From: a virus | DNA: 64,000 nucleotides | Direction: 5' to 3' (one strand) | UHGV virus genome: UHGV-0293664 | Shown here: positions 21,143 through 38,675 of the stretch, piece by piece | Layout of the letters: every line of letters starts with the position of its first letter | Numbering within the stretch: the stretch's first letter is position 1 | Position numbers and translations under genes: made by a program | Notes under the pieces: model-generated | The model's database searches: none | Seen by the model: the letters and a program-made list of their open reading frames with translations, nothing else | Told to the model about the DNA's origin: nothing

Positions 21143-21364
21143 TTAGTAAAACTGAAGAATGTCTTTTAAAGCGAAGTCACGATATTCGCCCTTGTCTACA
21201 TCAAAGGCGTGCATCAACCACTGCTCTTCTTTATGATACTCTGTAGAGCCAAACCATAAATTAGGCTCAGTAACGCAGCGATCTGCAACAACACCTTTCC
21301 AGTTACGGTATTTCATCCTGATCAGAACTGAATCGCAAGGATTGAATACCTTTTTCATCCCCAT
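21143..21364 (-). CDS. hypothetical protein (73 aa)
   Basis: ORF. Confidence 0.3.
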   Translation of the reverse strand: MGMKKVFNPCDSVLIRMKYRNWKGVVADRCVTEPNLWFGSTEYHKEEQWLMHAFDVDKGEYRDFALKDILQFY

Positions 21365-21908
21365 AGAAATCTCTCTCCTCAGTTTTCTTTATAAACTCCT
21401 GCATGTAGAACTCAATAGCCTCATGCTTGGTGCATTCCGGATTAATGACAAGATTGAGATCTGATTCTGCTCGTGCAATGATCGTAGCTTTAGAGCATCT
21501 CCTCAAGAACTTTGTCATATCATCTCTGTAGTTTTTGTGGAGCGGGAAGTCGCTGTAGTCTTTCTCCAAATAGTCAGCCATCCGGCGCAACGCCTCTGAT
21601 AAACTGCAATCTGTATACTCGTTACAGTATTTCATCCAGTATTTAAGTACATACCCCTCAAAGGTATTAGTGCATTGGGACAAAACACCCCTGCAACGAC
21701 CAGTCAGATGGTCATGATCCAAACAAGGCTTACGAAGTGGCTCGCACAAGATCGGATCAAGACCATCCTGCTCCTCTGACAATTCTTTTCGAAAGTTGGC
21801 TATGTCCTTAGAATCTTTTAACCACCCGTTATGAACGGGGGCTTTGACAGCTTTCTTTCTTATTTTACGCTTTGCGATAATCCCTCCAGATGCGCCCTGC
21901 CTATCCAA
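21303..21908 (-). CDS. endonuclease VII-like (HNH-family) nuclease
   Basis: LDHDHLTGRCRGVLSQCTNTFEG closely parallels the EndoVII-type core of the intron ORF at 38085. Confidence 0.55.
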   Translation of the reverse strand: MDRQGASGGIIAKRKIRKKAVKAPVHNGWLKDSKDIANFRKELSEEQDGLDPILCEPLRKPCLDHDHLTGRCRGVLSQCTNTFEGYVLKYWMKYCNEYTDCSLSEALRRMADYLEKDYSDFPLHKNYRDDMTKFLRRCSKATIIARAESDLNLVINPECTKHEAIEFYMQEFIKKTEERDFYGDEKGIQSLRFSSDQDEIP

Positions 21909-22489
21909 TAAGCATCTGCAAGATCGGCCTTACCTTGTACCAAATTGATCCCATCTAGGAACCCAGGTTCAGATACTTCGCAGGCCTTAACCATCAACTT
22001 TTTATCCATCGTAACAGGTTTCTTCACAGTATGCTCTTTACCTGTCTTTTTGTCAAGCTTTTTCTTCTCCTCGAAAGCAAGTTCCTCAGGAAGATGACTA
22101 CGAGCAAACTTTTTGGCAGTTGTTGGTGTCACTGTATGGACCTTAAACAGGCCGTCATTTTCACAATCAGCTAAAGCATCCCAAAGCATAACTTCAAGAC
22201 CGTAAAACAATCCAGCCAGTTCACGTGTGGCATCCCCGCGTGATCCAAAGGAAAGCCCTTCCATAACTACGGTGTCAACGTGGTGCGTGTGGATATAATA
22301 TCTGACCTGTTTGCAGATCCAGTCAATACGCTCAGCAGCTGTTGCAAAAGAAACCGTCCCTGGTTTCTTCTCTTTTGCAGATGAGCTTTGAGTTCGTAAC
22401 ACAACCTTATGGACAGGCTTTCCATCGTCCCATACAACGCAAGCTGTGTGTGTCAACGATTGGTCTATGGATAATAGACGCTCTCTCAT
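21860..22489 (-). CDS. putative RuvC-like Holliday junction resolvase
   Basis: N-terminal LSIDQSLTHTA and VVMEGLSF acidic positions resemble the RuvC fold; weak. Confidence 0.4.
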   Translation of the reverse strand: MRERLLSIDQSLTHTACVVWDDGKPVHKVVLRTQSSSAKEKKPGTVSFATAAERIDWICKQVRYYIHTHHVDTVVMEGLSFGSRGDATRELAGLFYGLEVMLWDALADCENDGLFKVHTVTPTTAKKFARSHLPEELAFEEKKKLDKKTGKEHTVKKPVTMDKKLMVKACEVSEPGFLDGINLVQGKADLADAYWIGRAHLEGLSQSVK

Positions 22490-22821
22490 GCTTCCTCATC
22501 CTCCTCTCCTTCATCAGGAGCATAAGCCTTATCTTTGAACAAGACGAGAGAGCAAAGCTTAACATCTGTTTCCACACTGGTAAACATGCATAACCGCTCG
22601 CCCTCAATCAGCTCACAATCCTCTTTTAAAACAGCAGACCATACACGGTCATCTGCGTAATCATCCGTGTACAGGATGTATGAAATGGTGTCATCTTCGT
22701 ACAACCGCCACATACCTGTGGCAACAACGAATGTATTTTTTGTTTTAAGTGTCCCTGTTGTGTGATCATCCTCAAAAACAGCTTCCATAATTGCGTTATC
22801 TACAGAATTTTTAGTCATCAA
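22486..22821 (-). CDS. hypothetical acidic protein (111 aa)
   Basis: ORF; acidic C-terminus. Confidence 0.35.
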   Translation of the reverse strand: MMTKNSVDNAIMEAVFEDDHTTGTLKTKNTFVVATGMWRLYEDDTISYILYTDDYADDRVWSAVLKEDCELIEGERLCMFTSVETDVKLCSLVLFKDKAYAPDEGEEDEEA

Positions 22822-23957
22822 ATTGCTCCAACATTTCTAAGAACGTTAACAAGTTTTGTTTGATCATTGAATGTTCGCTTCATATACAAACAGTCAAAAA
22901 TTATACTCATCCATTGACCTACGGAAATTCTACGATCAATACCATTGAAGTCAGTATACTTAACAACACCTTTCGGGAACCACTTCTTGTACTGATCAAT
23001 AATAGCCACCCACATCTCCTTTGGAGTGCTGCACTGAGACAGTAGGTAGAATGCTGAGGCATCTCCGAACTTACCCTTACCGATAAGTCCTTGATACGGC
23101 TTGATGTTGTCAGCAGAGTCACCACACAGCATTTGGTATCCGAAGAACAGCATTCCGTAACCACCAACCTCTCCATTAGGCTTCATGAAGATGTTCCCCA
23201 TACCGTTATCGATCAGCATAGGGGTTTCCCTTACAAAATCTCCCTTATCGTTTCGCATGGGATCGAACACAAGCCCAGGTAGTGTTCTTTGGTCCTTATC
23301 AATAGAGATAATAAACTTGTTGAACTTACCTGTTTTTTGGTAGTGATTCCAACCTTCAAATTGCTGGATAGCTAACCAGTCGTCAGCCTCGATACCGTTG
23401 ATCACTTGAGCATTATACTGCTTTTGGAGATACTGTCTTGCATCTCCAAGCAGCAGTGGTCGAAGAGTATTGTTACGGTTGGCTTTATATCTTTCCGGCA
23501 TGGGAAGATCTAGTCTGAAATTACCTGTGCCTCCAAGTACCCCCACGCACCGATCTTCCGGAATACCGAGATAATTAAGGACTGCATTAGCTTTACACTT
23601 AATTGTGTGCAAGCAGTTCTCTACAGGATCAGGGGTTTGGATATCCAAGACATCGAAATCTTCTCGTGTCCACGGAATAAACTCCTTGCCAGCCTTTTTA
23701 CATGCAGCTTCACGGTTGGTATTCTCAGCTTTTAACCAACCACCAACGGTGTTCTTCTGCCGCCCCCAGAACTCTGTTCGTGTTTTAAACATCTTCTTAC
23801 GTCCGGAGGCTTTGTGTGTTACCTCAATTGTCCTTTTTTCACAACTTGCCGCAGCTTGATATGCAACCTGGTCGAAGTCATAATAAACTATAGCGTCAGG
23901 TTCGAGAAGATCAGCAAGACAATCTACAGATTCAATAAGTGGATATTCTCTACTCAA
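22818..23957 (-). CDS. 5'-3' exonuclease / flap endonuclease (T4 RNase H-like)
   Basis: YKANR and GIEADDWLA motifs characteristic of FEN/5'-nuclease family. Confidence 0.65.
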   Translation of the reverse strand: MSREYPLIESVDCLADLLEPDAIVYYDFDQVAYQAAASCEKRTIEVTHKASGRKKMFKTRTEFWGRQKNTVGGWLKAENTNREAACKKAGKEFIPWTREDFDVLDIQTPDPVENCLHTIKCKANAVLNYLGIPEDRCVGVLGGTGNFRLDLPMPERYKANRNNTLRPLLLGDARQYLQKQYNAQVINGIEADDWLAIQQFEGWNHYQKTGKFNKFIISIDKDQRTLPGLVFDPMRNDKGDFVRETPMLIDNGMGNIFMKPNGEVGGYGMLFFGYQMLCGDSADNIKPYQGLIGKGKFGDASAFYLLSQCSTPKEMWVAIIDQYKKWFPKGVVKYTDFNGIDRRISVGQWMSIIFDCLYMKRTFNDQTKLVNVLRNVGAI

Positions 23958-24258
23958 AGTCCCTCCTGTTAGTTACTCTGCAAGATGGTTGGATGCTGTA
24001 ATGAAATGCATCATCACTTTCTGCAATAAGTGACTCAACATCCCAATACTTTTCAAAAAGGAACGGATTAGACCCCCAGTGGTGGGTTATTTTCATCAAG
24101 GAGTCTGGTATCAGATAGCCACAGATCTTAATTACATCGCCAGGTTGAATTGTGTTTTCATGAAGGTTGCTTGCCTTCTTCAGAATCATACCTTTGTGAT
24201 TCTCATTTGCATACAACTGGACGATATCTTTATCTTCAACAATAAAAATTTTAAGCAT
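23950..24258 (-). CDS. hypothetical protein (102 aa)
   Basis: ORF. Confidence 0.35.
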   Translation of the reverse strand: MLKIFIVEDKDIVQLYANENHKGMILKKASNLHENTIQPGDVIKICGYLIPDSLMKITHHWGSNPFLFEKYWDVESLIAESDDAFHYSIQPSCRVTNRRDFE

Positions 24259-24317
24259 ACCTAGTTCTCCTAGTTAATAAATAGTTAACTGATAATATCA
24301 GATCAGAGACTCATTTG

Positions 24318-24611
24318 TCAAGACTTTTTAGTCTTTCTTGGAGAGCTTTTTGTTGATCTTTTTCTTTTGTGGTAAATTCCAAGTGCAGCATTTTCTTGGG
24401 CACACGTTTTAACGGTTTTTAGATCAGAGCTTTCAGCTTTAGGTAGATTAAGCTCCCACCAACCCAACCAGTAAAGCTCTGATTCCGACAACTGCTCAGA
24501 TTCAGACTTCCGATACAAGGCTTGCATACCTCTGATGATATCGTCCAGAGGTGTATCGAATACAAAAGCTGTCTTATCAAATTTCTCTTTTGCAGGTTTC
24601 TTAGCCATCAA
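24318..24611 (-). CDS. hypothetical basic protein (97 aa)
   Basis: ORF; Lys/Arg-rich ends. Confidence 0.35.
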   Translation of the reverse strand: MMAKKPAKEKFDKTAFVFDTPLDDIIRGMQALYRKSESEQLSESELYWLGWWELNLPKAESSDLKTVKTCAQENAALGIYHKRKRSTKSSPRKTKKS

Positions 24612-25116
24612 GGTAACCCTCTATCCACGAAAAGTCAGTCTTCCATTCTGGAACTTTACTAAGCTCACGCCACTCTGCAAAGCAGTCTCGGTAATAGGCC
24701 TCTGCCATACCCTTGGTGATCTTATTCACCTTAGCCAACTGATTAACTGCCTGAGCATACTTTCCACGGATATTTGCTAACCCAGGATGCACAGATGTGT
24801 GACAATCTGGGCACAACGCTATCAGTCCGACAAGCCGGATCACTCCCTCTTCGAAAGTGTAAAGTTCATGACACTCCACTGGATGTTTGCTGCCTTTACC
24901 TCCGCACACCTCACAAGTGTAGTTAGCCTCTCTGTAGCACTTCTTACGGATCTTATCCCACTCACTCTTCTTCACAGCGTTTCGGAGGTTATTATACCAA
25001 GCTGTTTCTGGGATCAGTTGCACAATAAGCCTGCGTTCAGACTTCATTAAACGTCCGTCTTCCACGTGTTCTCCCTCATTCAAAGAAATGGGTGCGAGGG
25101 CAGGAACCTGCCTCAC
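24601..25116 (-). CDS. putative HNH endonuclease
   Basis: CEVCGG...ECHE...CPDCH Cys/His arrangement typical of HNH zinc-finger nucleases. Confidence 0.45.
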   Translation of the reverse strand: MRQVPALAPISLNEGEHVEDGRLMKSERRLIVQLIPETAWYNNLRNAVKKSEWDKIRKKCYREANYTCEVCGGKGSKHPVECHELYTFEEGVIRLVGLIALCPDCHTSVHPGLANIRGKYAQAVNQLAKVNKITKGMAEAYYRDCFAEWRELSKVPEWKTDFSWIEGYLDG

Positions 25117-25282
25117 CTTGTTTCACAAGCTCGTAGAGCTCACCTTGGCTTGTCTCATAAAGGCAAATACGTTTACCATTGTCACGATATACATCGACAA
25201 GGTATGCTGTTTCACCTGCAAATACGACACCACAGGCCAAACATGCCACCATGAACAAAATTGCCAACAGAAAATCTTTCAT
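25076..25282 (-). CDS. small secreted protein or lipoprotein (68 aa)
   Basis: N-terminal signal-like MKDFLLAILFMVACLACGVVFAG. Confidence 0.35.
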   Translation of the reverse strand: MKDFLLAILFMVACLACGVVFAGETAYLVDVYRDNGKRICLYETSQGELYELVKQGEAGSCPRTHFFE

Positions 25283-25346
25283 GGTTAAACCCTCCCAAAC
25301 ATTTTATGAGGTGACAATACCACGTCCGTGTGGATTATGTCAACCA

Positions 25347-25826
25347 TTAATCCAGTACTGTGCCTCCGGCTTTTCGGAAGACGTCCAGCATCTTCTCTAT
25401 GTTTTCTACACGCTGATCATACAGTTTACCAGCCCCCGGTGGTGGTGGGAAACTTGCCCAACGGCTACGGCATTTATAGATAGCTGAACGGATCCTTCCT
25501 TCATAAATGTCATCAAGGGCTTTACATTCGCGGATCAACTGTTTTGCTATGGCATCCTGACTTGCCGGACCAAAATCTCTTAAGCCAAGCTGCTTCATGT
25601 AATGCTTAGCGTATTTCTCCAGAATTTGGTATCTGCCAAATGCTGAAGAGGTAAGGCCTGGTCTTAATTTGACATAAATACCGGGATGCCTGCTGAGATC
25701 CTCTATGTATTTTCCACCAACAAGGATGTGGTACGAAGCATCTTCGCCACCATACCTGTCAGTACCTTCTGAGTGTGAAATCATCGAAAAAAATGCTCTC
25801 AATTGTACATTTTTATCTAGCTTCAT
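25347..25826 (-). CDS. endolysin, lambda R-type lytic transglycosylase
   Basis: HSEGT (catalytic Glu context) and SSAFGRYQ match the lambda-lysozyme family. Confidence 0.7.
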   Translation of the reverse strand: MKLDKNVQLRAFFSMISHSEGTDRYGGEDASYHILVGGKYIEDLSRHPGIYVKLRPGLTSSAFGRYQILEKYAKHYMKQLGLRDFGPASQDAIAKQLIRECKALDDIYEGRIRSAIYKCRSRWASFPPPPGAGKLYDQRVENIEKMLDVFRKAGGTVLD

Positions 25827-26587
25827 TTAAACCTCCGATTAAACCACTCTTCCAACGAATCATCATGTTTTGCATATTCTGCGGATTTTCTGACGCATAC
25901 AGCATCCCACCACTCCGTGTATTGCCCCAAATGATACCTTTTGCTGTTTTCAGCAATCTGAACTTGCCACTTGTCAGTATCGTGTCTCCATTTAACACCT
26001 GTACACCCAGATGTGTTATTAAGTTTTAGTATTTTGCCTTTATAAGTACCTGAAACTAGCTGTTTTCTTGCCTCTACAGCCTCATCTTTGGTCTTAAAGT
26101 ACCCAGCAAACCTATCTCCTTCGAGGGTGTTATATACTGCATACCATAAACCACATTTCTTATAAACGCCTAAGTTACCGTGCGGGTTATTTTTCGGGAG
26201 TAAATTATTTCTTATGCGGTCCTTGTTGTTATCACTGTAGGTGCCCATAGAAAGATTTTCTATATTATCCTGGCCTTTTATATCATTTAAATGCCTGACA
26301 AGAAAGTTTTTTGTTAAAGAGTTATAAAACATGTCGTAAATAATTCTATGACGCTTCTTATCACCACCTTTATGAGAGTTGATTATAACATACCCTTGTG
26401 CATCATTACAACCAGCTTTTGTGCCAGCTTTTATGAAGAGTTGATTTTTACCTCGGCCTCTATAATGACTCTTTGTCCAAACTAGCTCCCCATCTTTGTA
26501 CCAAAATGCAAAATTATCATTGAAGAAGAAATTAATCATTTTTTTTTTACTCTCCAATCTACTTATAGCATATCCGATCAACAACAC
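25823..26587 (-). CDS. HNH homing endonuclease with C-terminal AP2-like DNA-binding domain
   Basis: His/Asn-rich HNH-like core (HKGGDKKRHRIIYD...NIENL) plus C-terminal GVKWRHDTDKWQVQI...YHLGQY AP2-like module. Confidence 0.55.
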   Translation of the reverse strand: MLLIGYAISRLESKKKMINFFFNDNFAFWYKDGELVWTKSHYRGRGKNQLFIKAGTKAGCNDAQGYVIINSHKGGDKKRHRIIYDMFYNSLTKNFLVRHLNDIKGQDNIENLSMGTYSDNNKDRIRNNLLPKNNPHGNLGVYKKCGLWYAVYNTLEGDRFAGYFKTKDEAVEARKQLVSGTYKGKILKLNNTSGCTGVKWRHDTDKWQVQIAENSKRYHLGQYTEWWDAVCVRKSAEYAKHDDSLEEWFNRRFK

Positions 26588-26694
26588 TGTACAGCATGGT
26601 TATATTGCACAGTGCGAATATCAGGGCATATGCAGGTGCCAATTGAAAAAACCCTCATTCAATTGGCTACCGTTACCTACTAAACCTTCCTACA

Positions 26695-27978
26695 TCATTC
26701 CAGCACCTCCCAAGTGTCTGGGTTAACATTTCGAACGCGGATACCGACAGGGAATTGGTAGTTGTTGTCTTCTGTCCTTGCTTGGTATTTGAAGGTGATA
26801 AACTTGCCGATCATTTCCTGCATCCTGTCATAGCTACGCTCCTCGTGCGTGCCTTTCATCTTCATTTTAACAACAACACCTTCCTTGTCAACACAGATAA
26901 GAACACCTTCATCATTCTTATCTTTCTCAACGTCAATAACCTTCACCTCTGCGTCGTTGAACTTTTTCCATTTCAATGCTTCAGATGTTCGCTGACCATA
27001 CTCATATTTACCACAGAAGTTACGCATAATGGTACCTTCATATCCCTCAGACATAAATATACCAACAGACTCTTCGCACCGATCAACTGTGTATGCAAGC
27101 TCTGCATCAACAACCTTAATATGATCAAGCATCAAAGAAGCAATAGCACCATTTGCCTCCATAAGATCCTTACAGCGCCCAGACTCTGTTTCAGGATCCC
27201 ACCACACCTTATCGCTAGGGATATCGAAAATATGATACTCTAAATCGTAGCTGCAGTACCCTCCGTAACGCAAATCATCACGAACAGGCTCAACATCAAC
27301 AGGAATGTCTACCTTGTTGAAGTTTTTGTATGTTGCTAAACCTGCCTTAATCGCAGCCTGACGGCGTTTTTTATCTGCCTTGTAGTCTTTATCGATCTCG
27401 GCCTGAATTTCTTCCTGTGTGCGCCACCGTTTAGCAAGAGACACTATTTTCTGCAGAGGTAGACCATGAATATAGAGCTCTCCGTCGAGCTGTTTAATCC
27501 CGGTGGTTAGGTGGAAAGAGCGAAGTTGCTCCAGAAGCTTCCCTTGAATAGGGTAGGACTTATTACCACGGGAAATAAATTTAGGCTCACCATTCTGGAA
27601 AACAACAAGTAGACGAAGGCCATCTAACTTACGCAAGATCCAGCAAGGTAATTTAAGTGCCTTGCCACGCTTCAGGTAGTCATGCACCAACATGGGTAGA
27701 AGATCAACACCTTGCTCACAATCTTCCATACTCTCCACGTACCCAAGTCGGACCTGTTTTTCCCACTTACTGATCGCTTCCAGCTCGGCCTGTTGTTCAG
27801 CTGTAGTCTCGTTGGCACGACCTACGTTCTTAGGTGTGCATACCGTCTCTTTGTACTGCAGTTTACCGTCAAGCTTTCCAAACTCTACGATAACCTTACT
27901 ACCATCTGTGAATACTTTCCATTGCTGGTAACTTCCATCTTTATTTAGTGCATAAAGTGTTGTTTTGATTTGATGCAT
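26695..27978 (-). CDS. ATP-dependent DNA ligase
   Basis: Motif I RKLDGLRL (KxDG), 427 aa. Confidence 0.8.
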   Translation of the reverse strand: MHQIKTTLYALNKDGSYQQWKVFTDGSKVIVEFGKLDGKLQYKETVCTPKNVGRANETTAEQQAELEAISKWEKQVRLGYVESMEDCEQGVDLLPMLVHDYLKRGKALKLPCWILRKLDGLRLLVVFQNGEPKFISRGNKSYPIQGKLLEQLRSFHLTTGIKQLDGELYIHGLPLQKIVSLAKRWRTQEEIQAEIDKDYKADKKRRQAAIKAGLATYKNFNKVDIPVDVEPVRDDLRYGGYCSYDLEYHIFDIPSDKVWWDPETESGRCKDLMEANGAIASLMLDHIKVVDAELAYTVDRCEESVGIFMSEGYEGTIMRNFCGKYEYGQRTSEALKWKKFNDAEVKVIDVEKDKNDEGVLICVDKEGVVVKMKMKGTHEERSYDRMQEMIGKFITFKYQARTEDNNYQFPVGIRVRNVNPDTWEVLE

Positions 27979-28247
27979 TACTCGGCCTCTTCCTTAAAAA
28001 TTTTAAACATCTCTTCTTTACTCATTACCAACCAGTCTCCCATAAAGTCAACTAACCAATCTCCCTGGTACAAGACTAGGTTACCAAACGGCTCTACAAG
28101 CTCACACATGCGACGAAGATCTCTGGTCCGAACAGGTGACGATGTAAACACACCTGTATCAATCCACCGTTGCAGATCAGATACTGATGAAGAGCTTCCG
28201 TCAAACTGGTGTGCTTCTACAGGTTTAGCAAGATTAAATAACGGCAT
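27978..28247 (-). CDS. hypothetical protein (89 aa)
   Basis: ORF. Confidence 0.35.
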   Translation of the reverse strand: MPLFNLAKPVEAHQFDGSSSSVSDLQRWIDTGVFTSSPVRTRDLRRMCELVEPFGNLVLYQGDWLVDFMGDWLVMSKEEMFKIFKEEAE

Positions 28248-28572
28248 TGCAGTCCTCCTTATCTAATAGGTCTTTTATCGGGTAAACAAGCAGGTGTGGA
28301 TCGTAATAATTTATAGTTTTATTCTGCCACACTATGAACTTAATTACAACTAAATTTACCACATCTTTATCTCCATGTAGTCCAACACACAGATTTGTCC
28401 ATATTTTGTGGTTGAATACTTTGCTGTCGATGTAGATCTTAGTGTCAAACTTATCCTCTATCCTTCCTATGAGTTTAACCAACTCTTTCATCTGATCCCC
28501 AAACACAGCATCGTTTTCAAGATCTCTAGAGTGCTTGTACATAACTATCTGCCTCACTTGCATACTTTCCAC
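28234..28572 (-). CDS. hypothetical protein (112 aa)
   Basis: ORF. Confidence 0.35.
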   Translation of the reverse strand: MESMQVRQIVMYKHSRDLENDAVFGDQMKELVKLIGRIEDKFDTKIYIDSKVFNHKIWTNLCVGLHGDKDVVNLVVIKFIVWQNKTINYYDPHLLVYPIKDLLDKEDCNAVI

Positions 28573-28605
28573 AACAAGTAAAGCCGGGTGATCCCGGCTA
28601 TGTTG

Positions 28606-29319
28606 TTAAATATACTCTGTTACATCCTTGAAGCTTGAAGGCTTCATGATCTTACCTTTACTGTCAAGGAATATGATAACTTTATTACCGTTGTAGAACT
28701 CTTCCTTAGCAACAAAACCTTCATATCGACCATCAAAGCGTCGCTCAAGATCTTTAATCTCCAACTCTACGAGTTGTTCAGCAGGCATATCTGCACTGGC
28801 ACCGTGTGAATACCGTAGATGGTTAATCTTTGCAAACTTGCTGTCATTCGATTTGAGAACCTTACGCATCATCCCGCACACATCGCCGCGAAGCTGGAAC
28901 AGCAAAGCTGTTGACAACTCCGCTAAGCGGTAAGCTGACGCTCTTTGCTTAGGTGTGTTTTTCGCAGCGATCAGGGTATCATAGAACTCACCGATCTTGA
29001 ACTTAAGGCCTCGTGGATTATCAAACAGGCTTGACCACTTTTCGTGATTGTCATTAACAAGATAAGCGGCATAACTTGTGACAACGTGAAGATCGCAGGC
29101 CTCTTTTAGCAGGTGATCTCCACCATCGCCTTTCTCCAGCTCTTCCAAAACTTCATTGAACTCTTCCTCAATGAAGCTAAGCTGTAATTCGAACGGTGTG
29201 TATGATTTTTTCACTTTAGCTGCCACACGGTTCCAGTTTTCCACCCAGTTGGCAGACCAAAGGTAGTTTTCAGGTTGGGACAGTTTTTCCAGGTTGTCAA
29301 TCAATTTGGTATTCAGCAT
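28606..29319 (-). CDS. putative MazG-like nucleotide pyrophosphohydrolase
   Basis: EEEFNEVLEELEKGD...HLLKEACDL resembles the MazG EExxE...D metal-binding helix pair; weak. Confidence 0.35.
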   Translation of the reverse strand: MLNTKLIDNLEKLSQPENYLWSANWVENWNRVAAKVKKSYTPFELQLSFIEEEFNEVLEELEKGDGGDHLLKEACDLHVVTSYAAYLVNDNHEKWSSLFDNPRGLKFKIGEFYDTLIAAKNTPKQRASAYRLAELSTALLFQLRGDVCGMMRKVLKSNDSKFAKINHLRYSHGASADMPAEQLVELEIKDLERRFDGRYEGFVAKEEFYNGNKVIIFLDSKGKIMKPSSFKDVTEYI

Positions 29320-31406: not shown

Positions 31407-31428
31407 ATAAACAGCATCATGTCAACAC

Positions 31429-31457
31429 TTGAAATGTTCAAAAGAACACGATATACT
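31429..31457 (+). promoter_or_regulatory. sigma70-like promoter
   Basis: TTGAAA (31429-31434), 17-nt spacer, TATACT (31452-31457) upstream of the kinase gene. Confidence 0.4.
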
Positions 31458-31485
31458 ATCGTTGAAATTAAAACGGAGGATTACT

Positions 31486-31896
31486 ATGTCTAAAATGCTA
31501 TATATCGTGCGTGGTCTACCAGGGTCTGGCAAATCAACACTGGCAAATGCGCTATCTTTAGAAGGTCTGTATCCACATTTTGAGAACGACATGTTCTGGT
31601 ACGACGATGATGGAAATTACAACTGGGATGCAAGTAAAGTAACACTTGCAGCAAAATGGTGCAAAGATAACGTAGAAGATATGATGCGTATGGGATACGA
31701 CCGTATCGTGGTAAGTAATACGTTTACAAAAGAAAAATATGTGCAAGAATATATTGACATGGCGATCAGTCATGGGTATAGTTATACCGTGATCGTGGTT
31801 GAAAACCGCCATGGTAATAAAAGCATTCATGATGTTCCAGACAGGGTTGTGGATCGTATGGAACGCCAGCTTAAAAACTGCATTAAACTTAAATGA
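31486..31896 (+). CDS. polynucleotide 5'-kinase-like P-loop protein
   Basis: GLPGSGKSTLANAL P-loop and VVSNTFT resemble the T4 Pnk kinase domain; start placed at the SD-preceded ATG (31486), not the longer track ORF. Confidence 0.55.
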   Translation: MSKMLYIVRGLPGSGKSTLANALSLEGLYPHFENDMFWYDDDGNYNWDASKVTLAAKWCKDNVEDMMRMGYDRIVVSNTFTKEKYVQEYIDMAISHGYSYTVIVVENRHGNKSIHDVPDRVVDRMERQLKNCIKLK

Positions 31897-31903
31897 GGAA
31901 TGT

Positions 31904-32458
31904 ATGAAATACTTTGTAACAAGCGACACACACTTTCTCCACCAGCGGGTCATGGAGTTCGACTCATGTCAAAAACACAGATCTCAGTATGATCACAATC
32001 TTGACAGTATGAATGCGGGAATCATCACCAAGTGGAACTCTGTTGTGTCACCTGCAGACACTGTGTTCCACTTGGGAGATATTGCGTGCACTAATGATAA
32101 GAATATCAACAACTTACTTCCAGATATTCTAAATATGTTGAACGGACATATTATTCTTGTTCGTGGCAACCATGACACAAGGACGACTGTCAGAATTATG
32201 AAAGAGTTCGGTCATGAGGTTGTAGATTATTACGAGCTTCGCCACAACAAGAATTTGATCTGTATGAGCCATTACCAGTTTGCAAAGTGGAACAGAAAGC
32301 CTCACGGATCAGTCCAACTGTTCGGTCATGCTCACGGAACCACACAGCAGTTGTTTGGCAGGCAGTTTGATGTCGGTTGGGATGTGTGGGGGAGACTCTT
32401 ACCATTAGAAGAGGCATACCGTATTGCAATGAGTCTTGCTATTGACAGCGGGGAGTAA
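31904..32458 (+). CDS. calcineurin-like metallophosphoesterase
   Basis: SDTHF, HLGDIACTND, VRGNHD binuclear-metal motifs; start placed at ATG 31904. Confidence 0.6.
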   Translation: MKYFVTSDTHFLHQRVMEFDSCQKHRSQYDHNLDSMNAGIITKWNSVVSPADTVFHLGDIACTNDKNINNLLPDILNMLNGHIILVRGNHDTRTTVRIMKEFGHEVVDYYELRHNKNLICMSHYQFAKWNRKPHGSVQLFGHAHGTTQQLFGRQFDVGWDVWGRLLPLEEAYRIAMSLAIDSGE

Positions 32459-32505
32459 TCCCTGCTATTTTAAAGAAAATTGCCACACAAGGAGAATCAG
32501 GAGAT

Positions 32506-32856
32506 ATGAAAGATGGGGATAAGCTGCTATATCTTAAAGTCCCCCTTGAAATACTATCTATGTCAAAAGTTTTGAATGACACAACTGGGGAGGTTGTTGT
32601 TCTTGACTTATATGACAAGATCGTATACTGCTACCTGCACAACTGGTATAAGCTTGGAGGAAATTCACGCTTCACACCCAGCACAAGGAAAATTGCAGCA
32701 GATGTAGGGATAAAGAAAACAAAAGCAGCAGCGTGCGTTAAAACTTTAGAATGTGCAGGAGTGGTTGAAATATCCACACAAGGGAGAGGTAAAAGATGCA
32801 CATTTTCCAAAGTTTTGCCACCAGAAGAGGTTATTCGAATGTCAACAACTGATTAG
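32506..32856 (+). CDS. putative HTH DNA-binding protein
   Basis: STRKIAADVGIKKTKAAACVKTLECAGVV helix-turn-helix-like segment; immediately upstream of the iteron array. Confidence 0.4.
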   Translation: MKDGDKLLYLKVPLEILSMSKVLNDTTGEVVVLDLYDKIVYCYLHNWYKLGGNSRFTPSTRKIAADVGIKKTKAAACVKTLECAGVVEISTQGRGKRCTFSKVLPPEEVIRMSTTD

Positions 32857-32910
32857 ACCAGTAAAAACTTAAATATCTGTACTATAAGGATTCGTATGTT
32901 TTATGTTCGC

Positions 32911-33015
32911 CATGGAACAGACACTGTTAACTGTCCGTGATACGGACACTACTGTCCGTCACGCGGACACATCTGCCCGTAATACGGACACTAACTGTCC
33001 GTGATACGGACACAT
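32911..33015. repeat. tandem array of about 4 inverted-repeat units (GTCCGT-N4-ACGGAC), iteron-like
   Basis: Units at 32931-32950, 32951-32972, 32973-32993, 32994-33015 preceded by an ACAGACACTGT palindrome. Confidence 0.6.
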
Positions 33016-33140
33016 AAAGAATATAACTAAAATAACTAAATAATAAAAATAAAAAGATCTAGTACTTATGGTACTAAAGTACATATACTTAACTTATGTA
33101 GAATATACTAGATCCTAAGTACCATGTTTTAAAATTATTA
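33016..33140. other. AT-rich tract
   Basis: About 125 nt of very high A+T between the iterons and a GC-rich island. Confidence 0.5.
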
Positions 33141-33144
33141 CTTA

Positions 33145-33430
33145 CTATAGGTAGTGTCGGCCCTTCATTGGCACTCGCCTACGAGGGGCGAGATGCCGGG
33201 CCTCCATGGTGCACACAATAACAGAAGTGCATACATGCAGGTCTGTTAACATGTGTGGGAGCGAAGCGATAGCGCAGGCCAAAGGCCGAGCACTGATGTG
33301 GACCACCGACGAAAGCTTGCCAGCGCCGTAAGGAGTCGGTTGAGAGTCTCCCGCGCGAGCTTGGATGAAGTTTATGTGTGGAAACGGACAAGAAGGCACC
33401 TAAATCGCTCCACAGCTATATAAACTGCAC
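33145..33430. ncRNA. GC-rich non-coding island; candidate structured RNA
   Basis: Local G+C far above the flanks; the only ORFs are two overlapping minus-strand frames with non-protein-like composition; hairpins such as CTCGCC-tacgagg-GGCGAG. Confidence 0.3.
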
Positions 33431-33517
33431 CAAGTAGGGCAATCACATCAGTTTGATAGAAAAGCTCGTTACAAAGCGATACAGTGAGTTTTTCTATAAC
33501 TTGAAGAGGAGGCTGCT

Positions 33518-34096
33518 ATGAGTTCACGCAAAGATTCCCGTGAAAAGATTGCAAAACGTTATCAGAATGAAGAACAGATGGAGAAAACTTTCAAGTGGAA
33601 GCCAGGTTTCCAGCGTAATCATTCTAACGCTCGTGATCGTAAGCATCCGGATAAGTGGTTAACACCGCCAAATGATGGCATGCAGGCTGGTGATGAGAAG
33701 GAGCTGTCACCTGGAAAAGATGGCAACTACATTCGCACTAAGGAAGCAGGTCCAAAGGATGACAGTTATCTTGTAGATAAGGTTCTTGACGGTATTGATG
33801 TAGATGTTGACACTGCACGAAACCTTTTTCTTGGTTGGTATCGCACAGGGTTTTTCGACATCAAGGCTATTCGTCGTGTTTGTGATATTAAAAAGTCTGC
33901 CTATGATGATGACTCCCTACATCGCACTCTGAGACAATACTCGGAGAGATACGGTCATCCAGTTATCACTCTTGACGATATTAACGAAGTGATGTATCAT
34001 GCAGAGGTTGTTGCAGGTAGATTCGGTGATGCATACCTGGACATCCTTTCTGCAAAGGATGAGGTAATGTTGAATAAGATTTACTATGAACGCTGA
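33518..34096 (+). CDS. hypothetical protein (192 aa)
   Basis: ORF with SD GAGGAGG upstream. Confidence 0.45.
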   Translation: MSSRKDSREKIAKRYQNEEQMEKTFKWKPGFQRNHSNARDRKHPDKWLTPPNDGMQAGDEKELSPGKDGNYIRTKEAGPKDDSYLVDKVLDGIDVDVDTARNLFLGWYRTGFFDIKAIRRVCDIKKSAYDDDSLHRTLRQYSERYGHPVITLDDINEVMYHAEVVAGRFGDAYLDILSAKDEVMLNKIYYER

Positions 34097-34295
34097 GGAG
34101 CGCTTAATGAACAATCTGGTAGCAAAGAACTGTAATAGGTTTAACAAGTCTGCGATTCACACTGACAGGAAAAAGAGCTGGTCTCCTGACATCGACGATG
34201 AGCTTGAGAGTTACTTTGAAGACCTGGTCACTAATGCAGATGAGATTGCGATTAAAGAATACGCAGACAGGCGAGATAAGGCCGGAATCTGTTGA
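34086..34295 (+). CDS. hypothetical protein (69 aa)
   Basis: ORF overlapping the previous stop. Confidence 0.3.
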   Translation: MNAEERLMNNLVAKNCNRFNKSAIHTDRKKSWSPDIDDELESYFEDLVTNADEIAIKEYADRRDKAGIC

Positions 34296-34320
34296 CAAAA
34301 ATAATCTTACCTGATAAGAT
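34292..34320 (+). promoter_or_regulatory. sigma70-like promoter
   Basis: TTGACA (34292-34297), 17-nt spacer, TAAGAT (34315-34320). Confidence 0.5.
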
Positions 34321-34371
34321 CTGCAATATGATGTGATACAATTTTAACTTACGAGGTCTACAGGTAATGTT

Positions 34372-34614
34372 ATGTTTAAGGTTAAGCTCGTTTTTCGTTC
34401 CATGAATGAGGATTATTTAGAAGATGAAGGTGAATTTCGTGCACTAGATGATGCAATAGATTTTGCCAACGACTTAGCTTGTATGAATACTGGTTATGGG
34501 TTATGCTGTTGGGATGGTGGTGTTCAGATTGGCGATAGCAAGATCTTCTACTTCTACCCAGAGCCGGATAACAAACAAATTAAGTATGTTTTATTTATTT
34601 GTGCTTTACAATGA
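34372..34614 (+). CDS. hypothetical acidic protein (80 aa)
   Basis: ORF downstream of the promoter. Confidence 0.4.
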   Translation: MFKVKLVFRSMNEDYLEDEGEFRALDDAIDFANDLACMNTGYGLCCWDGGVQIGDSKIFYFYPEPDNKQIKYVLFICALQ

Positions 34615-34639
34615 GGTTGTTTTCGTGTATCATGATGAA

Positions 34640-34904
34640 TATCCAATTTAAAGATGAATTTGATGGCTTTATCTCCGGATGCTTTGAAACAGGGTTCGGA
34701 GAAGACTGAGTTCCCCTTAGAGGGCTTGATAGTGCACCACACTCAAAATGGTAGGGGCAGCCAGCACATGACGATGTGACCCCAGCCAACCTGTAATAAG
34801 GTCGAGCCCAAGTGCGGTAATGGGTATAGCTGGTAACCCACTTGTTGGGTCTTGTTGGTCCAGGACGCTGGGCAAGTCGCAGGGAACACCACCCTGCGGC
34901 GAAC
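34640..34904. ncRNA. non-coding GC-rich stretch; possible structured RNA or leader
   Basis: Only short overlapping minus-strand ORFs; hairpins GGGTATAGCTGGTAACCC and CAGGGaacaccacCCTG. Confidence 0.25.
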
Positions 34905-34933
34905 TTGACAATCAGTATTTGCTATGATAAAAT
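34905..34933 (+). promoter_or_regulatory. sigma70-like promoter
   Basis: TTGACA (34905-34910), 17-nt spacer, TAAAAT (34928-34933). Confidence 0.5.
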
Positions 34934-34961
34934 CCACCTATCACGTGATAATGGAGGAAAC

Positions 34962-35300
34962 ATGGCGGATACAACTAAAAAGCGTCGCCGTAGAGGCAGA
35001 CCTCTGAAAGAGGAGTCCAACGCCATTCAGCTAGAGAAGAACATCCTTGATATGAAGGAATCTTTTATAGCGATGGTTCCAGAAGCTCACAAAGTTTTAA
35101 GAGAGCTGATGTTGGACCCGAAAACCAAACAAAATATTCGTCAAAGCATTGCAGAGTATGTTCTTGATAAGGCAGAACGAATGCAGGAAGAATATGATGA
35201 GATGTTTGGTGAAGAGGAAGAGGTGGTAGTGGAAGAGGCTGAAAAACCAGCACCCTTTATGCCATTTACCACAGAAATACAGCCTGTTGGCAATAGTTAA
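34962..35300 (+). CDS. hypothetical protein with basic N-terminus and acidic C-terminus
   Basis: ATG after GGAGGA; KKRRRRGRP then EEEEVVVEEAE. Confidence 0.45.
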   Translation: MADTTKKRRRRGRPLKEESNAIQLEKNILDMKESFIAMVPEAHKVLRELMLDPKTKQNIRQSIAEYVLDKAERMQEEYDEMFGEEEEVVVEEAEKPAPFMPFTTEIQPVGNS

Positions 35301-35309
35301 AATATTTTC

Positions 35310-35338
35310 TTGACAAACTTTGCTTAACAGTGTAATAT
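35310..35338 (+). promoter_or_regulatory. sigma70-like promoter upstream of tRNA cluster
   Basis: TTGACA (35310-35315), 17-nt spacer, TAATAT (35333-35338). Confidence 0.5.
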
Positions 35339-35396
35339 TGTAAACATGGTCTCCCACCTTTTCTGGCGGCTCAGGTGTAAAAGAAAGCCACCCAGT

Positions 35397-35471
35397 GCCC
35401 TGTTAGCTTAGTGGATAAAGCAGCGGCCTTCTAAGCCGTTGACACTGGTTCGAGTCCAGTACGGGGTGCCA
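35397..35471 (+). tRNA. tRNA-Arg (anticodon UCU)
   Basis: Hand-folded cloverleaf: acceptor GCCCTGT/ACGGGGT (two G-U), D-stem GCTT/AAGC, anticodon loop CTTCTAA, T-arm ACTGG-TTCGAGT-CCAGT, CCA encoded. Confidence 0.65.
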
Positions 35472-35601
35472 AGTTCTTTTTAATGTAGCTTACTTTAGCA
35501 GAGTAAATCTTCGGCAAGTGGCGGTAACCACTTTACCGATACCTCATAGTTAGTGGTGAGAACACTAGCTATTTTAAAAAGAATTTAAATATTAGTATTT
35601 A

Positions 35602-35689
35602 GGTGAGTTAATTCCGTAGGGGTAGCGGGGCAGACTGTAAATCTGTTATCATTGCGATTCGGGTGGTTCGACTCCATCACTCACCACCA
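35602..35689 (+). tRNA. tRNA-Tyr (anticodon GUA), long variable arm
   Basis: Acceptor GGTGAGT/ACTCACC, anticodon arm GCAGA-CTGTAAA-TCTGT, long variable arm, T-loop TTCGACT, CCA encoded. Confidence 0.65.
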
Positions 35690-35803
35690 AATTTATATTT
35701 TTAAATGCATAAATCATACAGATAATGGCATTGATATTTATCGTCGTTTATACTAGTCACTAACTGCTCGAAAATCAGTGTCATTATCAGTATTGTTTAT
35801 AAA

Positions 35804-35894
35804 AGAGGGTAGGGAGCAATGGTGCTCAAGCGGTCTTGAAAACCGTCCCGTTGAGGATGACTCGATGATGGTTCGATTCCATTATCCTCTGCCA
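35804..35894 (+). tRNA. tRNA-Ser (anticodon UGA), class II
   Basis: Acceptor AGAGGGT/ATCCTCT, anticodon loop CTTGAAA, long variable arm, T-loop TTCGATT, CCA encoded. Confidence 0.6.
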
Positions 35895-35992
35895 TATTGT
35901 TGACCTTGTAATTAAGCGAAAGCCGGAAGCAGAACCGGATTATCAAATGTTACAGTCGTCATCGCCGACTAGCAACATGGTCAACATACTGA

Positions 35993-36089
35993 GCTAGGTA
36001 AGCCCTTTGGCAAGGGCGAGGATTTTTAATCCTGAAAATAGACGAGGTAGTCGTTGAATACATAGGTGGTTCGATTCCATCACCTAGCA
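35993..36089 (+). tRNA. atypical tRNA-like gene (97 nt; anticodon uncertain, possibly UUU)
   Basis: Perfect 7-bp acceptor GCTAGGT/ACCTAGC, D-stem GCCC/GGGC, T-arm GGTGG-TTCGATT-CCATC, but only a 4-bp anticodon stem AGGA/TCCT (loop TTTTTAA), a 30-nt extra region and no full CCA. Confidence 0.45.
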
Positions 36090-36096
36090 CCTTTTT

Positions 36097-36172
36097 GCTG
36101 ATGTAGCACAATTGGTAGTGCAATTGATTTGTAATCAATAGGTTGCAGGTTCGAGTCCTGCTATCAGCACCA
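36097..36172 (+). tRNA. tRNA-Thr (anticodon UGU)
   Basis: Acceptor GCTGATG/TATCAGC, D-stem GCAC/GTGC, anticodon arm ATTGA-TTTGTAA-TCAAT, T-arm GCAGG-TTCGAGT-CCTGC, CCA. Confidence 0.7.
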
Positions 36173-36173
36173 T

Positions 36174-36248
36174 GGCCCTGTAGCTGGAAGGTTCAAGCAA
36201 GCGACTCATAATCGCCAGACGGTGGTTCAATTCCACCCAGGGCCACCA
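36174..36248 (+). tRNA. tRNA-Met (anticodon CAU; initiator, elongator or Ile2 not distinguishable)
   Basis: Acceptor GGCCCTG/CAGGGCC, anticodon loop CTCATAA, T-arm GGTGG-TTCAATT-CCACC, CCA. Confidence 0.65.
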
Positions 36249-36259
36249 AATAATAAATA

Positions 36260-36336
36260 CTCCGCGTAGCTCAGCTTGGTAGAGCGCCTGATTTGGGATC
36301 AGGAGGTCGAGTGTTCGAATCACTCCGTGGAGACCA
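36260..36336 (+). tRNA. tRNA-Pro (anticodon UGG)
   Basis: Acceptor CTCCGCG/CGTGGAG, D-arm GCTC-AGCTTGGTA-GAGC, anticodon arm CCTGA-TTTGGGA-TCAGG, T-arm GAGTG-TTCGAAT-CACTC, CCA. Confidence 0.7.
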
Positions 36337-36383
36337 CTTTCAGTTATACTTTAAACATATACAAACAAAAGGAACCTTTAAAA

Positions 36384-36653
36384 ATGTATACACTTAAAAT
36401 TGTAGAGCGTGTAAATCCAACCCATACCGTAGATTTTCGTGACGATTTCAATCCTCTGGCTGTAAATCTTCGAGAGTCATATCATGAACTCAGCTGCGAT
36501 GCAGTGGTGGTCTTTTTTGAAGACAACTCTGAAGGGGCGGTAGCTTGTGTTGTTGATAGTGAGCAGAAGTTTTATATTTACAGAGATGTAGATGCATACT
36601 TGATGAATGAAAATGCAGTTACTGTTAGAATCATCCACCGAGTGCCTCGATAA
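36384..36653 (+). CDS. hypothetical protein (about 90 aa)
   Basis: Start placed at ATG 36384 after AAGGAA, because the longer track ORF (36276) would overlap tRNA-Pro. Confidence 0.4.
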   Translation: MYTLKIVERVNPTHTVDFRDDFNPLAVNLRESYHELSCDAVVVFFEDNSEGAVACVVDSEQKFYIYRDVDAYLMNENAVTVRIIHRVPR

Positions 36654-36709
36654 GTATTAGTCTCCTTTTAGTTAGTTTCGATCTATTTAGGTTACTCAAT
36701 TTTAACCCG

Positions 36710-36740
36710 CCCCGTTAGCTGTATAGCTGCGGGGTTTTTT
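36710..36740 (+). terminator. rho-independent terminator
   Basis: CCCCG...CGGGG hairpin followed by TTTTTT. Confidence 0.55.
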
Positions 36741-36758
36741 CGTTTCTGGAGCCTTAAA

Positions 36759-37157
36759 ATGATTTCAGTTTTAACATGGCTGAGCAGGTATAGAGGGGTC
36801 ATAAAAGGTTTAGTTTTTGCAGCTGCGATAGGTACAGCTTATCTTGGGGCCGTATATTGGTTTAACTCTAAGATTAATGAAGCCTACCAAGAGGGTGTAT
36901 CAGCAACAGAGTTAAAGTGGGAACGGATCCTTGATCAGCAACAAAAGCAGGCCGACAAAATTAAAATGGGCCACGCAGAGGAGGTTAAAAACCTTGAAAA
37001 ATCCCTTTCTGATCTGCAGGATAAATTAAATATGGCTGAGAAGGCAGGTAAAGAAAAGCAGATTATCTACCTCCAGTCACCTGAGGGCAAGAAGTCAACA
37101 CTTCCTGATCAGCTTATAGATATTTATAATGAGAGTATCAATCAGGAGGATCAATGA
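36759..37157 (+). CDS. putative i-spanin (Rz-like inner-membrane lysis protein)
   Basis: N-terminal TM helix (VIKGLVFAAAIGTAYLGAVYWF) then charged helical coiled-coil-like region; followed by a lipoprotein gene. Confidence 0.45.
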   Translation: MISVLTWLSRYRGVIKGLVFAAAIGTAYLGAVYWFNSKINEAYQEGVSATELKWERILDQQQKQADKIKMGHAEEVKNLEKSLSDLQDKLNMAEKAGKEKQIIYLQSPEGKKSTLPDQLIDIYNESINQEDQ

Positions 37158-37441
37158 GAGTTGCTACACTGTTTATTGTGTGCTTGTTATTATGTGGGTG
37201 TGCAACCAGCGTTGAGAGAGAATACAAGATTGACCCTCCTGATGTAGGAAGGTTGATTGTTAAACCCCCGGAAGGTGCCATGAAACCACCTGCTAAAGCT
37301 ATGCCTTTGAAGAAAGGTGCGCCAGATGCAGTGAATTCTGGCATTATGAGGGATAATAATCTGTCTTGTAGCAATGATAGAGTTAAATTGATCATTTTGC
37401 AAGACTATATTAGAACACTGTTTCCAAAGGAGAGAGGTTAA
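37154..37441 (+). CDS. putative o-spanin (Rz1-like outer-membrane lipoprotein)
   Basis: Signal peptide with lipobox-like LLLCGC and a Pro-rich mature region (DPPDVG...KPPEGAMKPPAKAMP). Confidence 0.5.
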   Translation: MRVATLFIVCLLLCGCATSVEREYKIDPPDVGRLIVKPPEGAMKPPAKAMPLKKGAPDAVNSGIMRDNNLSCSNDRVKLIILQDYIRTLFPKERG

Positions 37442-37869
37442 TGTCTAAGATTTACGGACCGTGTTCTGAAAAGCAGAAGATGATCCTAGAAAACGATGCA
37501 GATATTTTGGTAATCGGCGGTGCCGCAGGGTCTGGCAAGTCGTTCCTCCTGCAGTTGATGCCGCTTAAAATTATTGATGACCCACACAGCTCTGTGGTTA
37601 TGTTCCGAAGAACAACTCCACAGTTGGAAGGTGAGGGTGGGCTATGGCCTAAAGCAGTAGCTATTTACAGTGATCTGCCTGAAAACATTAAACCAAAGTT
37701 CAGAGAAAAGGATCATAAGTTTATTTTTCCACGGTTTGATCCGAGCACTGGCAAGTGGGATAGGAGCAAAAAGGGGGCCGTTGTAAAATACTGCCACATG
37801 GAGTATGTCCAAGATAAGCTTAACCATCAAGGCCTTGAGTACACAATGGTTTGCTTCGATGAGGGTTAA
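37441..37869 (+). CDS. terminase large subunit, N-terminal ATPase part (exon 1 or split-gene part 1)
   Basis: Walker A VIGGAAGSGKS and Walker B MVCFDE; ORF stops right after Walker B. Confidence 0.75.
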   Translation: MSKIYGPCSEKQKMILENDADILVIGGAAGSGKSFLLQLMPLKIIDDPHSSVVMFRRTTPQLEGEGGLWPKAVAIYSDLPENIKPKFREKDHKFIFPRFDPSTGKWDRSKKGAVVKYCHMEYVQDKLNHQGLEYTMVCFDEG

Positions 37870-37916
37870 TTTGTAGCTCTCGTAAAACCTCCCTAATTGC
37901 GGGGAAATCTTTATTA

Positions 37917-37945
37917 TTGACACCACCAACCTGTCATGGTAACAT
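37917..37945 (+). promoter_or_regulatory. sigma70-like promoter inside the intron-like element
   Basis: TTGACA (37917-37922), 17-nt spacer, TAACAT (37940-37945). Confidence 0.4.
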
Positions 37946-38084
37946 GATAGAGGCTTCGAAGAGAGATCGAAGGTATGGTAACAGTGTGTTAATTTAGATA
38001 ATCCGCAGCGAAGCATCCGAAAGGATGAACGTTCAACGACTAGTCGAAAGACGTAGAATCAAGCGATTCGAAACGGGAGGGTGA

Positions 38085-38675
38085 ATGTGTAATACTAAAA
38101 AATGTATGGATTGCCAAAGAGTTCTACCTCTTGATGATTTCTTTTTATCATCTAAGAGCAAGGATGGATACTCCGGTACATGCAAGGAATGCTATATGTA
38201 CTACAGGAAGAATGGATCTCGTAGAAACAAAAATATGGTTAAGAGAGATGATGCAGCATCTTTTATTCAAGACTTACTGAAGAAAGGTGAGCTTTTTGAA
38301 TGTAAATCTTGTCATGAAAGTATGCTTGCTGATAGTTTTTACACAAAACGTGACTATGGTAAAGTGTATCTGGTTACGAACAGGTGTAAGATGTGTGAAA
38401 AGTTTTATCAGATTGAGAAGAAATTTCACATAACAAAAGATGAATACTATCGTTTACTCTCAGATCAAGATCATAAGTGTGCCATTTGTAGAATATCTCT
38501 TGATGAGTATAGGACGCAAGGGTACAGAGATTTCTTTTGTGTTGATCATGACCATAAAACTGGTGCTGTAAGAGGGTTGCTTTGTGATAAATGCAACAGA
38601 GCTTTAGGTTTCTTCCAAGAGGATGAGGAAACCATTCTTAGAGCAGCAGAGTATTTGCACATTCATAAGATATAG
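38085..38675 (+). CDS. HNH / endonuclease VII-like homing endonuclease
   Basis: CVDHDHKTGAVRGLLCDKCNRALGFF EndoVII/HNH catalytic core plus N-terminal Cys clusters; lies within the terminase interruption. Confidence 0.7.
   Translation: MCNTKKCMDCQRVLPLDDFFLSSKSKDGYSGTCKECYMYYRKNGSRRNKNMVKRDDAASFIQDLLKKGELFECKSCHESMLADSFYTKRDYGKVYLVTNRCKMCEKFYQIEKKFHITKDEYYRLLSDQDHKCAICRISLDEYRTQGYRDFFCVDHDHKTGAVRGLLCDKCNRALGFFQEDEETILRAAEYLHIHKI

Follow-up and report, generated by a model that had tools for sequence, protein, structure and literature searches.

The window analysed here, a 64,000-nucleotide (nt) stretch of the viral genome UHGV-0293664, comes from a Vequintavirus, an rV5-like myophage of Escherichia coli, and contains five open reading frames (ORFs), each with a nuclease domain from one of the families that homing endonucleases use (PF02945 twice, PF13392, PF10544 and the HNH families of PHROG). 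We consider it very probable that these ORFs fall into two unrelated classes: three selfish homing endonuclease genes (HEGs), which begin at positions 5990, 25823 and 38085, and two vertically inherited core genes, which begin at 21303 and 24601. A sequence-only reading had taken all five for free-standing genes of the homing type; their positions and the nuclease nature of their domains stand, but the last two turn out to be ordinary residents of the genome, and the ORF at 38085 is not free-standing, since it lies inside a group I intron, as the same reading indicated in listing it as an intron HNH.

What separates the two classes is above all their distribution among relatives. Some 123-124 records match the window at 92-99% identity (megablast with 37000-40000 and 20500-27500), about 120 public genomes being 96-97% identical to it, and the gene order of the window agrees with that of rV5, FV3 and YP-6. 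About 20 of the matching records are labelled ‘Campylobacter phage’ (MG0656xx, host C. jejuni), although they are 95-99% identical to E. coli vequintaviruses at these loci, and their host labels look doubtful. The gene at 5990 occurs in seven of these near-identical genomes, that at 25823 in four, with decayed copies in three further records, and that at 38085 in 30 of about 123, each sporadically and at one fixed site; the copies are often more alike than their flanks, or are accompanied by flanks that appear co-converted. The mobility proposed in the sequence-only reading thus holds for these three genes and fails for the genes at 21303 and 24601, which are present at full length in 121 and 119 records, respectively, and keep their order across genera, so that both are to be regarded as core genes rather than HEGs. 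Conservation at fixed positions is just what that reading had itself named as speaking against mobility. No record holds all of the mobile elements of the window together, which implies that the elements assort independently.

Two core nucleases and the question of duplication

From its left end, the window carries nucleotide-metabolism genes, a minus-strand replication and recombination module, a tRNA cluster and then, on the plus strand, the spanins, terL, the portal gene and structural genes. Both core nucleases belong to the replication and recombination module, which runs in the order HNH, 5'-exonuclease, RuvC-like, endonuclease VII (EndoVII) and DnaQ-like exonuclease. The same order (HNH, exonuclease, two small ORFs of which one is the RuvC-like gene, EndoVII, a small ORF and DnaQ-like exonuclease) is found in Certrevirus CR8, and that of Klebsiella phage KP12 is consistent with it, most KP12 genes being annotated as hypothetical only. 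By tblastn, the two core nucleases were detected in other Vequintavirinae genera at 45-63% amino acid (aa) identity.

The EndoVII gene (21303-21908, minus strand; Pfam Endonuclease_7, E = 1.5e-7) encodes a protein of the T4 gp49 type that aligns with T4 endonuclease VII in both the catalytic and the C-terminal domains and has the full T4 EndoVII fold over its whole length, including the C-terminal helical (dimerisation) domain. Among 41 homologues, residues D64, H65, H67 and N81 (D40, H41, H43 and N62 of T4) are invariant and E84 (E65 of T4) is at least 90% conserved. In contrast to T4 gp49, whose Cys4 cluster comprises C23, C26, C58 and C61, the vequintavirus clade lacks all four of these zinc ligands: the equivalents of C58 and C61 are S77 and T80, and the 41 homologues have no conserved cysteine column, from which we conclude that this clade has retained the fold of gp49 while lacking its Cys4 zinc site. 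The protein thus looks like a zinc-less variant, which also differs from gp49 in having some 30 additional, poorly predicted N-terminal residues and in adjoining a gene for a RuvC-like Holliday junction resolvase (21860-22489, minus strand; phrog_159, E = 2.7e-39). The latter lies immediately upstream, overlaps the EndoVII ORF as listed by 49 nt and is a conserved neighbour in relatives. The EndoVII protein would resolve branched DNA before or during packaging.

The second core gene (24601-25047, minus strand) encodes a small HNH-motif nuclease of 148 aa when read from its ATG, the ORF as listed starting from a GTG and extending to 25116. The listed ORF matches phrog_5200, one of the PHROG HNH families, with E = 3.5e-72 and no Pfam model over threshold (HNH PF01844 reached 14 bits against the required 21.4). 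The motif CxxC...H...CxxCHxxxH is invariant in 50 aligned homologues from a family that numbers at least 469 members, which are about 145-160 aa long and come mostly from metagenomic phage-like contigs; two distant members lie on contigs of 307-496 kb with huge-phage-like gene sets, where no informative neighbours were seen. The family has neither a Pfam model of its own nor a close solved structure, despite a model with a pLDDT of 95. A role as the terminase-associated HNH protein of cos phages was considered and discarded, since the gene does not adjoin terL and belongs to the replication module in all genera examined.

Two observations weigh against counting these genes as a resolvase and a core nuclease. 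The loss of the Cys4 site means that resolvase activity of the EndoVII protein is not guaranteed, and the small HNH gene is labelled ‘putative homing endonuclease’ in the annotations of several relatives. That label would fit the view that all five genes are of the homing type and that the genes at 21303 and 38085, in particular, arose by a recent duplication or by the movement of one copy to another place in the genome. This view also draws on the fact that Pfam Endonuclease_7 matches both proteins, that they have the string DHDHxTGxxRGxL in common and that the codons for DHDH are identical over 12 nt. Do the two catalytic cores, which the sequence-only reading had called near-identical, bear it out? 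From DHDH to the final G they agree in just 11 of 22 residues and 33 of 66 nt, and the BLASTP alignment is confined to 25 residues, with 48% identity, so that the likeness amounts to about 50% and is limited to the family motif. The core of the intron protein is moreover nearer to that of T4 gp49 (16 of 22 residues) than to that of its supposed twin. The architectures and best structural relatives differ as well, the protein at 21303 being T4-EndoVII-like over its whole length and that at 38085 resembling Hpy99I and F-CphI, with the motif at the C-terminus. Taken with the fixed, syntenic occurrence of both core genes across genera, these results make the view that all five are homing genes, with a recent duplication among them, very improbable, and a recent duplication was rejected. 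The common string is the signature of PF02945 (the EndoVII superfamily) and no trace of a recent event; the homology it reflects is true, since both proteins belong to PF02945, but ancient.

The published phylogeny offers the frame for this distinction. Proteins with the EndoVII motif form two clades, a resolvase clade, alignable with gp49 over the whole length, and an endonuclease clade with a C-terminal motif, to which F-CphI, Hpy99I and ORFs encoded in introns belong (Fang et al. 2018; PMC6083498). The proteins at 21303 and 38085 fall into the resolvase and the endonuclease (DHHRN/F-CphI) clade, respectively, which again gives no support to a recent duplication.

The terL intron and its endonuclease

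The ORF at 38085-38675 (plus strand) resides in the P8 loop of a group I intron that interrupts terL. Exon 1 (37441-37866, plus strand) comprises 142 codons with the Walker A part, matches Terminase_6N and is collinear with nt 1-426 of the intronless terL of FV3; the intron (37867-38749, plus strand) spans 883 nt and matches RF00028 with 47 bits (E = 1.3e-10); and exon 2 (38750-39871, plus strand) completes a spliced product of 515 aa, the length of FV3 TerL. The boundaries were set by alignment to the uninterrupted FV3 gene and by sequence: an in-frame UAA forms the first codon of the intron, G38749 is its last base, and the 5' exon end GAGGGU/UAA can pair with GCUCUC ten bases downstream, placing a U37866·G37876 wobble in P1, as is typical of group I 5' splice sites. 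Searched at gathering thresholds, Rfam returned tRNAs only, and the introns surfaced just in E-value mode on short stretches.

One might ask whether the intervening DNA is a splicing intron at all, or whether terL is truly split into two polypeptides or has become a pseudogene. Against the intron assignment stands its score of 47 bits, slightly below the Rfam gathering score of 50, and gene-splitting, non-splicing HNH insertions do exist, for example in Aeh1 nrdA (as cited in PMC7344957). The low score is, however, attributable to the 582-nt ORF insert in P8 (38083-38664), in place of which rV5 has an 18-nt hairpin, and that ORF-less allele of the same element reaches 84.9 bits, well above gathering. 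Furthermore, the splice sites are canonical (the U·G pair, the terminal G and the in-frame stop as the first intron codon), the joined exons restore the FV3 reading frame exactly, and terL, the packaging gene, is essential, yet the intron is present in about 53 viable isolates. A genuinely broken or divided terL is thus hard to credit. Self-splicing of the window intron is instead the probable state, as suggested by the viable isolates and by analogy with Certrevirus CB7, a relative within the subfamily, in which reverse transcription PCR showed that a terL intron containing an HNH ORF is spliced (PMC7344957).

Across the roughly 123 near-identical Vequintavirus records that served as the denominator, 30 have the intron with the ORF, 23 the ORF-less intron and the remaining 70 or so an intronless terL. 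That the element travels apart from its genomic background is illustrated by ECP26, in which intron and ORF are 99.7% identical to those of the window, yet the replication region only 92.9%. The introns in terL of rV5 were described in 2013 (Kropinski et al.; PMC3606486), and both rV5 and DrSchubert, a phage of the BASEL collection, have the gene annotated as joined. The window intron occupies the same site as rV5 intron 1, to which it is 98-99% identical; the two genomes differ in that rV5 intron 1 lacks an ORF and is followed by a second intron with an HNH ORF, whereas the window has the ORF in intron 1 and no intron 2. This second intron (some 980 nt, its HNH ORF being ORF65 in rV5) is also found in HdK5 and YP-6, about 1.2 kb downstream, and its empty site in the window is at 39063-39068 (plus strand). 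As a side observation, stretches of 52 nt that match the core of terL intron 1 at 94% are found elsewhere in MW883061.1 (40261-40311) and OK272482.1 (56541-56591) (SYGMH1, JLBYU08), which suggests that related group I introns sit at other positions in some vequintaviruses.

The intron-encoded protein matches Pfam Endonuclease_7 at residues 110-192 (E = 2.1e-21), with the EndoVII motif at residues 153-174 of 196, behind N-terminal zinc-ribbon modules and without the C-terminal domain of gp49. It has the equivalents of the T4 catalytic residues D40, H41, H43, N62 and E65 and keeps CxxC...CxxC; its best PDB sequence match is the restriction enzyme Hpy99I (63-192), and T4 EndoVII matches its catalytic core only. 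The C-terminal motif with its catalytic residues, the N-terminal DNA-binding zinc modules and the intron location are all shared with the DHHRN/F-CphI family, to which its orthologue was assigned: the ORF in the intron of Escherichia phage 2 JES-2013, a vequintavirus with the same terL intron and ORF, has been listed as an intron-encoded HEG of the endonuclease clade (PMC6083498). Unlike the present gene, which sits in P8 of a terL intron, F-CphI is encoded by a free-standing gene beside an intron in cyanophage psbA. The intron-encoded protein would cut intronless terL alleles in mixed infections, whereupon repair from the intron-containing genome would copy intron and ORF into the cut gene and splicing would give back the 515-aa TerL.

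A second group I intron, outside the range considered in the sequence-only reading, interrupts nrdD (10617-10873, minus strand). It is 257 nt long, has no ORF and matches RF00028 more weakly than the terL intron does (29.2 bits, E = 1.4e-5); joined in silico, the nrdD exons encode 707 aa with no stop in between, and the intron has the 5' splice site of the terL intron (GGU/UAA) and a G as its last base. The site is polymorphic: nrdD is intact in rV5, holds the same intron with an HNH ORF in FV3 and, in YP-6, another insert of 770 nt that contains an ORF of 169 aa. The nearby nrdG-nrdD intergenic region (8425-9180) is likewise variable, the window having rV5-type small ORFs and FV3 and YP-6 a different 369-nt segment.

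Free-standing HEGs and the alleles beside them

The two free-standing HEGs of the window have in common that each lies beside a neighbour gene whose sequence departs sharply from that of close relatives. The first (5990-6919, minus strand) encodes a 309-aa T5orf172 protein related to GIY-YIG nucleases, with N-terminal treble-clef zinc-finger repeats (PF10544 with 37.9 bits against a cut-off of 20; also DUF4379 and DUF723; phrog_681, E = 1.8e-66). The gene is absent from rV5 and FV3, and its seven copies are about 99% identical. It forms part of a cassette (6004-7476, minus strand) that also includes the 3' 516 nt of phoH (6961-7476): these 1473 nt stand where rV5 and FV3 have 544 nt, and they have no nucleotide match in either genome. 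As a result, phoH (6961-7755) is chimeric, PhoH residues 1-48 being near-identical to rV5 and the remainder only about 50% identical. In a collection of 50,697 phage records, the C-terminal 216 residues of PhoH are found at 100% identity only in the seven records that carry the T5orf172 gene, the closest other match, among 1,850 matching records, reaching 52.6%. Apart from this locus, navn and SophiaRose have a second T5orf172/GIY-YIG-type gene in the nrdG-nrdD region (L018, 5969-6901, and L019, 5989-6930), which is 79% identical to the T5orf172 gene of the window over 94 nt.

The second free-standing HEG (25823-26587, minus strand) is located between the DNA ligase and endolysin genes and probably starts at the ATG at 26539, which gives a protein of 238 aa. 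It matches Pfam HNH_3 at 25.9 bits, against a cut-off of 24.8, and phrog_99 with E = 1.2e-37; its C-terminal residues 183-242 resemble modules of other phage HNH families, and its relatives are annotated as a 717-nt putative homing endonuclease. The AP2 domain that the sequence-only reading had assigned to it was not recovered even at E ≤ 10, nor was a PDB sequence match. The four full copies are 99.2-99.7% identical; among the decayed ones, that of JEP1 has an internal 417-nt deletion and that of V18 (two records) an 825-nt deletion which fuses the remnant to the ligase gene.

Here the linked neighbour is the endolysin gene (25347-25826, minus strand), whose start codon overlaps the stop of the HEG. 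Compared with the HEG-less naam, the window is 96-98% identical on both sides but only 52-79% identical at the nt level across the endolysin gene; compared with EduardKellenberger, which carries the HEG, endolysin and HEG together (25300-26500) are 99-100% identical and the flanks 91-98%. At the protein level, 100% identity to the endolysin of the window type (98.7% in one case) is restricted to the seven records with the HNH_3 gene or a remnant of it. The next alleles, at 71-74% (best 73.9%), go together with a second, different HNH gene at the opposite end of the endolysin gene, as in FV3, and the rV5-type endolysin, at 67.7%, is without a HEG. Genomes that are otherwise 95-98% identical thus harbour endolysin haplotypes of three kinds, each diverged from the others (aa identities of 100%, about 73% and about 68%), and two unrelated HEGs seem to compete for the endolysin gene. 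The other HNH gene of FV3-type phages, with its third endolysin allele, maps to 25343-25378 of the window and to 38851-39534 of FV3 (L010).

How could a nuclease gene and a foreign allele of its neighbour come to be inherited as one? The free-standing HEGs of T-even phages (the Seg and Mob genes) spread by intron-less homing, in the course of which flanking markers are co-converted. Like them, the T5orf172 and HNH_3 genes of the window are intergenic and sporadic and stand beside a diverged neighbour allele with which they are inherited; they differ from the Seg and Mob genes in nuclease family and in their putative targets, phoH and endolysin or ligase. The allele linkage at phoH and endolysin, read from sequence, is the pattern that would be expected of intron-less homing with co-conversion of a cleavage-immune flank. 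In such a scheme, the nucleases would cut or nick the adjoining gene (phoH or endolysin) of HEG-less phages, and repair would then copy the HEG together with the diverged, presumably cleavage-immune allele of the neighbour gene, so that both genes may spread by intron-less homing.

The diverged neighbour alleles could, on the other hand, be the product of ordinary modular recombination, with the HEG a passenger and not the driver. The sporadic nucleases would then be passengers of mosaic exchange or morons, such as anti-competitor or defence nucleases, and the phoH and endolysin alleles merely alternative modules. Vequintavirus genomes are indeed mosaic, as seen in the ligase of the window, which is 71-76% identical to that of rV5 and 98% to that of naam; variable islands free of nuclease genes also exist (2048-2492 and 8425-9180); and no donor was found for the phoH segment. 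What makes the passenger explanation unlikely nonetheless is that each nuclease gene is strictly linked (7 of 7 records) to one diverged allele of the adjoining gene, and that the different HNH gene across the endolysin gene carries an endolysin allele of its own. In addition, the endolysin cassette is 99-100% identical over backgrounds that differ by 2-9%, decayed copies of the HEG have been kept together with the linked allele, and the domain families of the sporadic genes are those of characterised HEGs. Homing with co-conversion hence remains our preferred account of the two cassettes.

Other variable segments and features of the window stand apart from these elements. The 445-nt segment at 2048-2492 lies inside an ORF (2174-2707), is replaced in FV3 and YP-6 by an unrelated segment of 410 nt and gave neither a nuclease domain nor any Pfam match. 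In the tRNA cluster (35397-36336), a 126-nt segment (35476-35601) is missing from rV5, FV3 and YP-6. The tRNA calls in the cluster are discordant, 35602-35686 being predicted by Rfam only and a tRNA-Ser at 35804-35894 by ARAGORN only. ARAGORN also reports a 99-nt tRNA-like gene with a four-base anticodon at 35993-36091 (Rfam tRNA, 35.5 bits).

Meaning for vequintavirus genomes

For this group of phages, it is unremarkable that 64 kb should contain three HEGs along with two group I introns: a high HEG load is documented in the subfamily, Certrevirus CB7 having 23 HEGs (PMC7344957), and HEG ‘infestation’ with linked gene conversion has been described for the larger genomes among the BASEL phages (PMC8594841). 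The findings are accordingly ordinary for the group and largely published already, and they leave the current understanding of homing endonucleases unchanged. Modestly new are the strict linkage of HEG and allele at the phoH and endolysin loci and the zinc-less clade of gp49 type; we did not find the cassette of HEG and allele at phoH, the endolysin haplotypes tied to two HNH genes or this clade stated in the literature cited here. There are practical consequences for annotation. The core genes at 21303 and 24601, labelled as homing endonucleases in many GenBank records, should not be counted as mobile elements, and terL and nrdD must be entered as spliced genes.

The broader proposal, that homing by the HEGs of vequintaviruses brings coding sequence of foreign origin into resident genes, in the form of fixed cassettes of a HEG and an immune allele, we regard as having about even chances of being correct. 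The HEG-linked allele cassettes themselves account for places where identity falls locally and so misleads phylogenies of the group, of which the BASEL authors had warned (PMC8594841), and the many near-isogenic isolates with and without a given HEG make the vequintaviruses a convenient natural system for the study of homing and co-conversion.

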